A stretch of 63,906 bases of DNA, filler included, from Xylographa opegraphella (Eukaryota), in assembly GCA_022813865.1 (NCBI GenBank). It is 4 parts of 4 records of this genome, joined end to end, with 100 filler letters (N's around TTAATTAATTAA, not from the genome) between each part and the next. Parts side by side here need not be neighbours in the genome. Positions count along the whole stretch, not along the records: positions 49,011 to 63,906 come from JALDZX010000155.1; 3 more parts are not named here. One strand, given 5' to 3'. Under the pieces are notes generated by a model that searched no databases, was not told the origin of the DNA, and saw nothing but the letters and a program-made list of their open reading frames with translations. Within the stretch, counting starts at the first letter, position 1; every line of letters starts with the position of its first letter. The position numbers and the translations under genes are program-made. Positions 49,073-59,159 of this stretch are shown here, piece by piece.

Positions 49073-49338
49073 TAGGGAGAGGTCCCCTTACGCTGGATCA
49101 CCTTGTTGAACCGCAACCCGGCTGGCACTAGGTATGTGGATGGATTGCTTTGATATTAAAGCTTATGCAATCCATACCGTTGAACATTCTTATAATGAAT
49201 TACAAGTGTTCCCAATCAGGAGCTGTCCCGATTATCACATTCCGGTTCCGCATTCTGGCTTTGTAGAGTCGTTCTGCGTAGTGCTGTCGATATGACTTAT
49301 GTATGTTAAAAACTGGACATGTCTGTTAATTGGAAGAT

Positions 49339-51297
49339 ATGCAAGAAATGCAGGCCTACACTGGGGAATTCGTCGAGCCATCCGTTTACAGCAACCTCCT
49401 CGAGGACGAAACATTCCGTCTACTCCGCTTGACAAATGGTATATGCACAGACGAGCTTCAAGGCCAACTTATGATTCATCGACTATCCGATGCACCTCCA
49501 TACGAAGCTTTGAGTTATGTATGGGGCGATGCCACTATCAACGGGCATATCAAATGCGCGGGCAAAGTTCTCCCTATTACTCCAAACCTGACAGCGGCAT
49601 TATACCGGCTCCGTTCGACCTCCGCGGATCGTCTGTTGTGGGTTGACCAGCTGTGTATCAATCAGGACGATCTTCAGGAGCGAAGCAAGCAGGTCAGTAT
49701 GATGAGATCGATTTACAAGACTGCAGAAAGAGTGTTGGTGTGGCTGGGCCCAGATCACGAGAAACAAGCCGAGCATGCCAAGAGTCTAGTTATGGCAATT
49801 GTTCAGCTTGTGTCTGTAGCTGGAGAAGACGAGATGGTAGAAGAGATGATGCATTTCCCTGCAGACAAGGCGTTGATAGAGCACGGACTGCCGCCCAGAG
49901 ATCATCCACAGTGGGACGCTTTAGTCCATTTAACTGGGTTGCCGTACTTCACGAGGGTATGGGTAATCCAGGAAGTAAGTGTGGCATCGAAGGTATTGAT
50001 GATCTGGGGAGAGACGGAGTTCGATATGCTCGACTTCAGATCAGCAATCTCCTGGGCGTCACGTAACAACTGCGCCTTCTCCACAGATGTCGAGCCTGCC
50101 AAAGATTCCAAGCCTGGAATAGATGCAGCTCCTTTCATGGTCGTTAATCGCCTTTCAGGTACATTACTACAGCTACTTGCCAGAACAGAAGCTTGCCGGG
50201 CATCTGATCCGAGAGATAAAGTATACGCACTTCTCGGTCTGGTGGACAATCACCACGATAGATTTAAACCATTGCTCAAAGCTGACTATACACTCCCGTT
50301 AGTCAGAGTGTACTGTGATACAACACGGTACGTGATCTCGCTTACACAGTCTTTGGAAGTGCTATGTTACAACGTCAATCACAGTAGTCCTGAGAAGAGT
50401 GTTCCGTCATGGATGCCACGGTTCGATTTAGGTATAACAGACCCCTGGAGATTATATGGAGAACATGAAGCTTGCGGAAACACAATTGCACTGATTCGTG
50501 AGACGAATGATGATCAGTTTCTATCGCTCGAAGGTGTTAGAATCGACAAAATTCAATTCGCTGATATCATTTTGGAAGAGGACGAACCTCCAGATACTAC
50601 GAGTAAGGCCTGGGACCTAGCAATGGACAAATTAAGTGGAACAAAAGCCCTTCAATCGTTATTCAAAGACTTCATCTTCGTTGTAACGGGTGGTGCCATG
50701 ATTGACGACATCAGCGCACCGGTCCTGGCTGATGACACGCTTGTGCTCGATTTCCTTTACTACCAGATATCCAGGATATTTCAAACTCTTCAAACAGCGC
50801 CAACGAAGCAGCCAGCCAAGTGCCTGAAAAGTATGCTTGAAATGGCAGAAATAGCTGCATCGTTAATGGATGGTGTATTGGACATACATCCTAAGCACTT
50901 CCCATCCCAGCAGAGTATAGAAACCAAAGACCAGCTTACTCAATACCACCCCAGCGCCCCTCCTTCCGTAATCGAAGAAATTGCTAAGCGCCTCGAGAGC
51001 ATCTGGATGGACAAAGATTGGCGTCGCTTCTCCATCAGCTTTGCAAATGCGGGCGAATTCCGTAGGTTCTTCATTAAAAAGCAGAACTCGATGGGCATCG
51101 GCCCTCAAGCAATGCGATCCGGTGATATCGTCTGTGTACTTTTTGGAGGTCGGACACCGTTCGTACTGCGTCCATACCCAAATTCCGACCGCTATGCCTT
51201 TATTGGAGAATGCTACATTCATGGATGGATGCATGGAGAGGCAATCGAGAAATGGCGGCAGGGCATACTAAGGAGCGAGTGTTTTACGCTTGATTGA
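49339..51297 (+). CDS. Heterokaryon-incompatibility (HET) domain protein, HET-6-like, intronless
   Basis: YEALSYVWG, LWVDQLCINQDD, QVSMMRSIY, VWLG, YFTRVWVIQE, ASDPRDKVYALLGL, GDIVCVLFGGRTPFVLR, GECYIHGWMHGE. Confidence 0.93.
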   Translation: MQEMQAYTGEFVEPSVYSNLLEDETFRLLRLTNGICTDELQGQLMIHRLSDAPPYEALSYVWGDATINGHIKCAGKVLPITPNLTAALYRLRSTSADRLLWVDQLCINQDDLQERSKQVSMMRSIYKTAERVLVWLGPDHEKQAEHAKSLVMAIVQLVSVAGEDEMVEEMMHFPADKALIEHGLPPRDHPQWDALVHLTGLPYFTRVWVIQEVSVASKVLMIWGETEFDMLDFRSAISWASRNNCAFSTDVEPAKDSKPGIDAAPFMVVNRLSGTLLQLLARTEACRASDPRDKVYALLGLVDNHHDRFKPLLKADYTLPLVRVYCDTTRYVISLTQSLEVLCYNVNHSSPEKSVPSWMPRFDLGITDPWRLYGEHEACGNTIALIRETNDDQFLSLEGVRIDKIQFADIILEEDEPPDTTSKAWDLAMDKLSGTKALQSLFKDFIFVVTGGAMIDDISAPVLADDTLVLDFLYYQISRIFQTLQTAPTKQPAKCLKSMLEMAEIAASLMDGVLDIHPKHFPSQQSIETKDQLTQYHPSAPPSVIEEIAKRLESIWMDKDWRRFSISFANAGEFRRFFIKKQNSMGIGPQAMRSGDIVCVLFGGRTPFVLRPYPNSDRYAFIGECYIHGWMHGEAIEKWRQGILRSECFTLD

Positions 51298-58421: not shown

Positions 58422-59159
58422 TCAAGAATTAGCAGGACATTTTTTTGAAGTATCTCTCCACTGCTGCTGTTTCCCTTCCCACACATTTACCTGGTGCTCG
58501 TGTCCGGCGTCGGTAGGACAGCCGCCCTCCTTAAGCGCCTTAGTGGCCCTTCTACGACCTGTGGCAACTCTGTGAGGAAATAAAATCGTCAGCTATACAG
58601 CGTGCCGGTGTGTGGAAGCAGAAGCAGAAGCTACGCGGACCACTTACTTTCCCGCAGCTTCTGCGAGAGCCGTTGCTGTTTTCCTGCTCGGTTTCTTGGA
58701 ATCCCAATGTTTACGTTCGTTCTCAAACGTAGTTTCGGCAGCCTTATATCCCGCGGTCTCTCTAGCTGCTCGCGCTTTACATTGTTCTTTACTCTGTACC
58801 GGCGAAGCCTCGGGGTATGCATAGGCGGCACGGCGGTAAAGGTCTTCGAGTGAGATCTCTGTGTCGGTATAGGGGAAGGCCTCTGCTTCGGCCTCGGCTT
58901 CAGCATAGGCTTCTGCTAAGACGTCTGCCTCGGCATAGCGTGCTTCGATGGCGCGTTTGACGTGGAAATTGAGGTCATTGCCGTTCTCGGCAAGAGAAGA
59001 AGCGTGGGCATTGTGAGGATAGCGAGCTCTCTCGTAGAACCGAGTATATACGTCAGCCTCGGCATCGGCGTCAGCATAGCGAGCATAAAGGCTCTCGGAC
59101 CTGGCAGAAATAAGAGTGGGAAGGAAAAGCAGAGTGGCGACCACAATTGAGTAATGCAT
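58422..59159 (-). CDS. Orphan secreted prepro-protein with X-Ala/X-Pro dipeptide repeats; exons 59159-58648 and 58569-58422
   Basis: Signal-peptide-like MHYSIVVATLLFLPTLISA; intron GTAAGT...GCTGAC...CAG gives an in-frame second exon ending CPANS*. Confidence 0.8.

Follow-up and report, generated by a model that had tools for sequence, protein, structure and literature searches.

A two-exon gene of the lichen fungus Xylographa opegraphella encodes a secreted precursor with Kex2/Ste13-type dipeptide ladders and a basic mature domain of no recognised family

The window, which is the whole stretch of DNA analysed (63,906 nucleotides of Xylographa opegraphella, assembly GCA_022813865.1), contains on contig C63 (JALDZX010000155.1, 14,896 bases) a two-exon gene on the minus strand, confirmed as a real gene coding for a secreted prepro-protein, with a signal peptide by hydropathy. 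The spliced product has 219 amino acids and one stop. Exon 1 spans 59159-58648 on the minus strand. The intron (58647-58570, 78 nt, minus strand) is phase-2, contains in-frame stops, and shows a GT donor, an AG acceptor and a branch-site motif about 22 nt upstream of the AG; its junction is the same as in the spliced homologue models P0012 and P0015. Exon 2 (58569-58422, minus strand) belongs to the mature domain and encodes an invariant Arg-Arg-Arg (176-178), Cys188, Cys215 and the stop. An alternative acceptor at 58559 was ruled out because it leads to an immediate stop, and a second possible donor at 58490 because the orthologue models read through this site. The flanking genes are PRP4/WD40-like and F-box-like by Pfam scan (the F-box match is weak, E 0.06) and, further off on the contig, there are HET, ribosomal L21 and kinase genes. 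The HET-domain gene is at window positions 49330-51297 (plus strand), close to the start of the contig. No DUF3328/UstYa gene, expected near dikaritin RiPP precursors, was found among the seven neighbouring ORFs scanned, on a contig that spans just 14.9 kb. The window joins at least four contigs across runs of N, and its positions 1-40000 show mostly 15-25% GC with short gene islands of 45-50% GC, a pattern that resembles the AT-rich repeat regions of some fungal genomes. Xylographa comprises wood-dwelling lichen fungi of the Ostropomycetidae with a Trebouxia partner, as described in PMC9098629.

The precursor shows three parts: a signal peptide (residues 1-19; 59103..59159, minus strand) with a predicted cleavage after Ala19, an acidic pro-region (residues 20-110; 58830..59102, minus strand), and a last dipeptide ladder (residues 111-120; 58800..58829, minus strand) which precedes the mature domain. 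The signal peptide proposed in the earlier note is supported by the hydrophobic N-terminus (KD 9-mer up to 3.1, with no hydrophobic segment further on) and by the similar N-terminus of those homologues that reach it. The pro-region contains the candidate Kex2 sites R27 (LxxR, 24-27), K68-R69, R74 and R109-R110 (LxRR, 107-110); an orthologous Arg site at residue 49 is lost, being His49 in this gene. Runs of X-Ala/X-Pro dipeptides follow three of these sites: four dipeptides after R27, two and then a break after R74, and five after R110, the last being a predicted substrate of a Ste13-type enzyme. The observed X-Ala/X-Pro total was reached in 4 of 20000 shuffles of the pro-region and in 13 of 20000 shuffles of the whole protein, and two runs of at least four dipeptides appeared in 11 of 20000 pro-region shuffles. 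After the last Arg-Arg, Ala or Pro fills 47 of 48 cells at the even positions of eight sequences, two positions showing exchanges between Ala and Pro, and none of 40 cells at the odd positions 3-11; as the sequences are related, the cells are not independent. The repeated modules of an Arg followed by X-Ala/X-Pro are thus real and in conserved register, but the second has decayed and the third run is broken here: the third ladder loses its register at the third dipeptide, while five orthologues have 11-13 dipeptides. The second module, previously read as Arg46 followed by YP, shows one dipeptide only, and the orthologous Arg is three residues further on, at the position of His49. Likewise, a mature start at Ser119 gives way to Val121, which is the residue predicted by dipeptide trimming.

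The protein had been called an orphan, and this description does not hold, since relatives were found in eight clusters at 90% identity, three of them in named Xylographa species, and two spliced models share the junction. A full HMMER scan gave five matches, of which P0007, a repeat protein of a leafhopper with E 7.5e-4, was set aside as due to chance, and profile and region searches added four further homologue clusters. The named species are X. bjoerkii, X. soralifera and X. vitiligo, and the other homologues are ENA/JGI proteins. The X. soralifera and X. vitiligo genes show 69% and 72% identity to this gene, respectively; both keep the splice and the open frame, and their models place the intron at the same junction. 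P0014 is an off-frame ORF which continues into another copy of exon 2. The remaining entries hold exon 1 only and end at about the intron donor; the X. bjoerkii model P0003 (MCJ1391802.1) ends at the donor, probably without exon 2. In exon 2, 28 of 48 residues are invariant in this gene, P0012 and P0014, and the tribasic site is invariant in these three and in P0015. All three Cys and the Arg-Arg-Arg are retained wherever exon 2 is seen, and the first Cys (Cys127) is present in all eight aligned sequences. The pro-core (residues 68-110) is 93% identical to that of X. soralifera, and in the six homologues holding both parts it is more conserved than the mature part of exon 1 (93/62, 93/64, 87/49, 96/58, 78/29 and 67/32% identity), the pro-core values being raised by the low complexity of its Ala/Glu-rich sequence. 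Neither the genome, judged by the best-scoring candidates, nor the fetched loci yielded a paralogue of the mature domain. A word-index search restricted to residues 112-171 gave no match, a false negative given the homologues found by the other searches. A scan of JGI metagenomes gave 297 pattern matches and none confirmed, so that no homologous DNA or synteny was gained, and exact look-up of the neighbouring genes for synteny returned no named relatives. A search of the literature, largely of open-access main text, returned no paper that deals with this 219-aa protein and its relatives or with ladders of this kind in lichen fungi. From these comparisons, the mature domain would be a new, narrow, lineage-restricted family carried on a known Kex2/Ste13 precursor grammar.

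Genes for one kexin (S8 and P domain) and for one DPPIV_N/S9 peptidase, the latter with a hydrophobic anchor at its N-terminus, are present in the genome. With both enzymes encoded and the dipeptide register conserved, Kex2 plus Ste13-type processing, as the earlier note had proposed, is well supported; it is the 47 of 48 cells with Ala or Pro at alternate residues that strongly supports a Kex2 cut followed by Ste13-type trimming. Signal peptidase would take off residues 1-19, a Golgi Kex2 would cut after the Arg sites, with the decisive cut after R110, and a membrane-anchored Ste13/DPP-IV-type enzyme would trim the five dipeptides to leave a 99-aa mature protein starting at Val121. Taken as a whole, this series of steps, predicted from the protein sequence, is very probable. 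A STE13 signature after a KEX2 site is described in PMC6339444 and PMC9769878, and the LxRR of this protein fits the RR/LxxR Kex2 motif described for K2PP proteins (PMC8528282). The K2PP effectors presented there (SnTox3, ToxA, SIX1/4/6) also show a signal peptide, an unstructured pro-domain, RR/LxxR in the first half and a folded mature domain; here, a predicted signal peptide is followed by LxxR at 24-27, KR at 68-69 and LxRR at 107-110 of 219 residues, and the preceding region is poorly structured in the orthologue model. They differ in that, in the terms of PMC8528282, they belong to plant pathogens and not to a lichen-type fungus, whereas this precursor has several Arg sites each with a ladder and an all-helical mature domain; no sequence relation to them was found. 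LxxR pro-sites are also reported in the fungal AFP and BP families (PMC13525654). A precedent in which both enzyme types mature a folded secreted protein of a fungus is the Yarrowia alkaline extracellular protease (PMC6311201), which likewise involves signal peptidase, a dipeptidyl aminopeptidase and a Kex2-like enzyme, and whose pro-domain acts as a chaperone; unlike here, the cargo is an unrelated enzyme and, as outlined in that source, the dipeptidase acts before the Kex2-like cut.

The alpha-pheromone precursors and KEPs (PMC6339444, PMC9769878, PMC7329392) share with this protein a Kex2 site followed by XA/XP repeats, and removal of such dipeptides is reported in the same sources for a basidiomycete KEP made in Pichia. 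The short acidic peptides between the upstream Arg sites could be the main products, with the C-terminal domain secondary, since the pro-core is the most conserved part and the long upstream ladders of the orthologues would trim such peptides cleanly; this is highly improbable, because the inter-site peptides are not repeats and because this copy has lost a site and carries an interrupted ladder upstream, whereas the mature domain still has a complete ladder in front of it. KEPs, as defined in PMC6339444, have at least three near-identical cores between Kex2 sites, but here the inter-site pieces differ and are followed by one 99-aa domain. With its own ladder intact while the upstream modules decay, the mature domain is favoured as the product.

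The mature domain begins in exon 1 at Val121, and this part (58648..58799, minus strand) contains Cys127, helix 1 and the first half of helix 2. The spliced Lys/Arg-rich domain of about 100 residues with three Cys that the earlier note had described was recovered, with 99 residues, 21% Lys+Arg, three Cys, seven Gly and an Ala-rich composition. Its GRAVY of -1.29 and its low content of large hydrophobic residues (11 of 99) argue against membrane lysis. AlphaFold2 predicted three helices for the mature part of the X. soralifera orthologue (mean pLDDT 83, pTM 0.67, with a pLDDT of at least 76 in four of the five models), this model being that of an orthologue with 60 of 100 mature residues identical to this gene and resting on an eight-row alignment whose second half has one row. 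Helix 2 contains eight Lys/Arg versus one or two acidic residues, and 12 of its residues do not vary among the three exon-2 sequences. The product may be pictured, from the model, as a soluble, Ala-rich bundle of three helices, the second of them strongly basic. Shuffling gave no support for an internal duplication of the domain (367 and 607 of 2000 shuffles), and a homodimer prediction scored 0.03, with no interpretable outcome.

No Pfam match was found for the mature domain or the precursor, the best PDB sequence match has E 0.42, Foldseek, run against PDB and viral models, had no match that reached E 0.001 (best E 0.93), and the ESM Atlas returned no usable match for either mature query. 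VIA-align found generic bundles only, the best being a designed protein (Z 11.4, rmsd 2.2, 91 aligned), with identities of 3-16% and below the Z of about 13 needed for meaning in helical bundles. MITD1 (Z 9.4, rmsd 1.7, 72 aligned) appeared among many unrelated bundles, with no Pfam MIT match; generic three-helix bundles, MIT domains included, have the same up-down helical arrangement as the orthologue model. The mature domain thus stays unrecognised, as first reported, with no specific family from the HMM/Pfam and PDB sequence searches and no specific fold from Foldseek, and function transfer lacks a footing for this reason. Cys-stabilised fungal antimicrobial proteins such as defensins and AFP have at least six Cys and a beta-containing fold. 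This type is not matched by a domain with three Cys, an all-helical model and no Pfam match. Given the up-down topology, Cys127 and Cys188 are expected at the same end of the bundle, and from this topology the product probably has one disulfide, Cys127-Cys188, plus one spare Cys.

Yeast killer toxins can be products of Kex2 cutting with two chains joined by disulfides. In the same way, Kex2 might cut a second time, at the mid-domain Arg-Arg-Arg, and leave two chains held together by a disulfide; the site is invariant and is flanked by Cys127 and Cys188. This is very unlikely: the tribasic site is embedded in a helix predicted with confidence, its P4 residue is Thr or Gly where an aliphatic one is preferred, and no dipeptide ladder follows the Arg-Arg-Arg. 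Together, the two-chain form and the KEP-like peptides have a small share of the probability.

The two parts of the precursor show opposite charge: the pro-region has a net charge of -11 (pI 4.5) and the mature part of +9 (pI 9.8), values whose net charges are the same in the X. soralifera orthologue (-11/+9), and the uncut pro-protein is near neutral (net -2). Of the suggested acidic safety catch removed stepwise, the charge offset stands, but the stepwise removal does not, since 20 of the 21 acidic pro-residues are upstream of the last Arg-Arg and would leave in one cut, and the last ladder holds one. Any masking would consequently end with a single Kex2 cut, with Ste13 just finishing the N-terminus. 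In the full-length orthologue model, pLDDT is below 50 over most of residues 1-121, pro-region included, and docking of the pro-region is therefore not shown by it. The acidic pro-region may offset the basic domain in early transit, as a neutraliser or folding aid from which the domain would be freed in one cut.

The same spacer was searched for in the rest of the genome, where the ladder pattern gave 83 matches against 32 for the control and the Arg-site pattern 50 against 25; as matches cluster and overlap, 83 and 50 are not gene counts. The loci examined were the distinct places of the ladder pattern, 20 of the 50 Arg-site matches and, for ORF analysis, 15 hand-picked loci including this gene. 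Eight other ORFs show a signal-like start and a run of at least four dipeptides after an Arg in one frame (L015, L024, L034, L035 twice, L036, L041 and L052), and the start of four more ladder ORFs lies in a separate exon or beyond the stretch (L011, L038, L039 and L056, where L056 has runs of 2-3). Of the remaining matches, many fell in frames that look intracellular or do not code (17 of the 20 Arg-site loci). In all, no fewer than 12 unrelated ORFs of this genome share the spacer; none of 14 ladder ORFs had a Pfam match at E 0.01, and the cargoes are unrelated. Several spacer-bearing ORFs encode Gly-, His- or Lys-rich low-complexity proteins, and some have just 8-30 residues behind the ladder. 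The spacer therefore means "processed in Golgi" and is not diagnostic of a toxin.

Some of these loci show features of their own. L034:1488-2645 (minus strand), L052:4146-6410 (plus strand) and L039:1492-1845 (minus strand) carry Arg and ladder modules at the C-terminal end, with 8-16 residues behind. L038 (G000 C231, about 273300-275350, minus strand) is a multi-exon secreted protein with ladders of 25 and 12 dipeptides and His/Gly-rich repeats after Arg-Arg; by its predicted sequence it is a better KEP candidate than the 219-aa gene. L037:1230-1868 and L041:1331-1669 (both minus strand) contain a signal peptide, an acidic spacer and small Cys-rich domains with no Pfam match, and are candidate defensin-like or effector proteins; L037 has a short pre-site motif in common with the homologue P0006. 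At G000 C193:132900-136800 (L035), two divergent ladder-bearing secreted genes adjoin close to the contig end. L024:1398-2465 (minus strand) encodes a secreted protein with a C-terminal Arg and ladder tail and no Pfam match at E 0.01, which we take to be GH16 glucanase-like by its catalytic motif.

The hymenopteran venom precursors (melittin, aculeatoxins and the formicitoxins FRTX1/2; PMC13170668) also have Ala or Pro at every second residue; aculeatoxins share the acidic pro-piece, and FRTX2 a convertase site plus dipeptide repeats. PMC13170668 outlines a stepwise route for melittin and ant venom peptides; in precursors of the melittin/aculeatoxin type it directly follows the signal peptide and uses no convertase, whereas here the ladders follow Arg sites. 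Products of the melittin/aculeatoxin type are short, amphipathic and hydrophobic, in contrast to 99 residues with a GRAVY of -1.29. A Pilosulin Pfam match (E 0.36) is under the cut-off and affects the pro-region of one homologue only. The likeness to these precursors is probably convergent. A more ambitious proposal is a venom-gland-like system of this lichen-fungus lineage, in which a conserved Kex2/Ste13 ladder cassette would be placed on at least a dozen unrelated, fast-evolving secreted cargoes and this gene would be a new all-helical cationic class, antimicrobial or alga-controlling, possibly cut again at the Arg-Arg-Arg into two disulfide-linked chains; we regard it as doubtful.

For the mature protein, our tentative reading, held at a little below even odds, is that of a putative non-lytic cationic antagonist of other microbes, which in the thallus or wood would bind to their anionic surfaces or polymers. 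It draws on the charge, on the pattern of conserved pro-region and variable cargo, on the charge density of predicted effectors and on the antimicrobial repertoires of lichen fungi. A conserved pro-region with variable cargo is typical of defence-peptide precursors. The predicted antimicrobial effectors of another fungus show a higher charge density (PMC13525658), and lichen fungi are reported to have many predicted, lineage-specific antimicrobial proteins (bioRxiv 10.64898/2026.09.03.749242). The gene itself is single-copy beside housekeeping-type genes, with no sign of an expanding toxin family, and this setting would suit an extracellular-matrix structural or stress protein, processed in the same way, that binds acidic polysaccharides or guards during drying. 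The very hydrophilic, Ala-rich mature part with 7 Gly in 99 residues, and the Gly-, His- or Lys-rich low complexity frequent in other spacer ORFs, point in the same direction. Desiccation hydrophilins are mostly disordered; the compact predicted fold, the three kept Cys and a mature part that diverges faster than the pro-region speak against such a role and make it rather unlikely.

The product could instead be a non-killing effector or signal directed to the algal partner or to the fungus's own hyphae, with the Arg-Arg-Arg helix face as a putative binding or uptake patch. A small, secreted, lineage-restricted protein of K2PP-like architecture would be consistent with this, as would the basic helix 2 with its 12 invariant residues in three of three exon-2 sequences. 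Ste13 signatures have been proposed as marks of hormone-like products, but the proposal, as summarised in PMC6339444, covers short repeated peptides and not 99-aa domains, and on its own this role is unlikely. Antagonist and non-killing effector taken together are reasonably probable, and the whole explanation preferred here, comprising the processing and a putative non-lytic antagonist or effector role, has a probability of about 0.45.

The proteins that lichen fungi use on algae or other microbes are mostly known as predictions only. The 219-aa gene adds a definite candidate, whose mature N-terminus is predicted and whose product is simple to prepare and test. Its processing grammar is already known and its cargo appears, by sequence comparison, to be new, and the ladder motif offers an inexpensive way to list secreted, processed proteins that escape Pfam, as all 14 ORFs scanned did.
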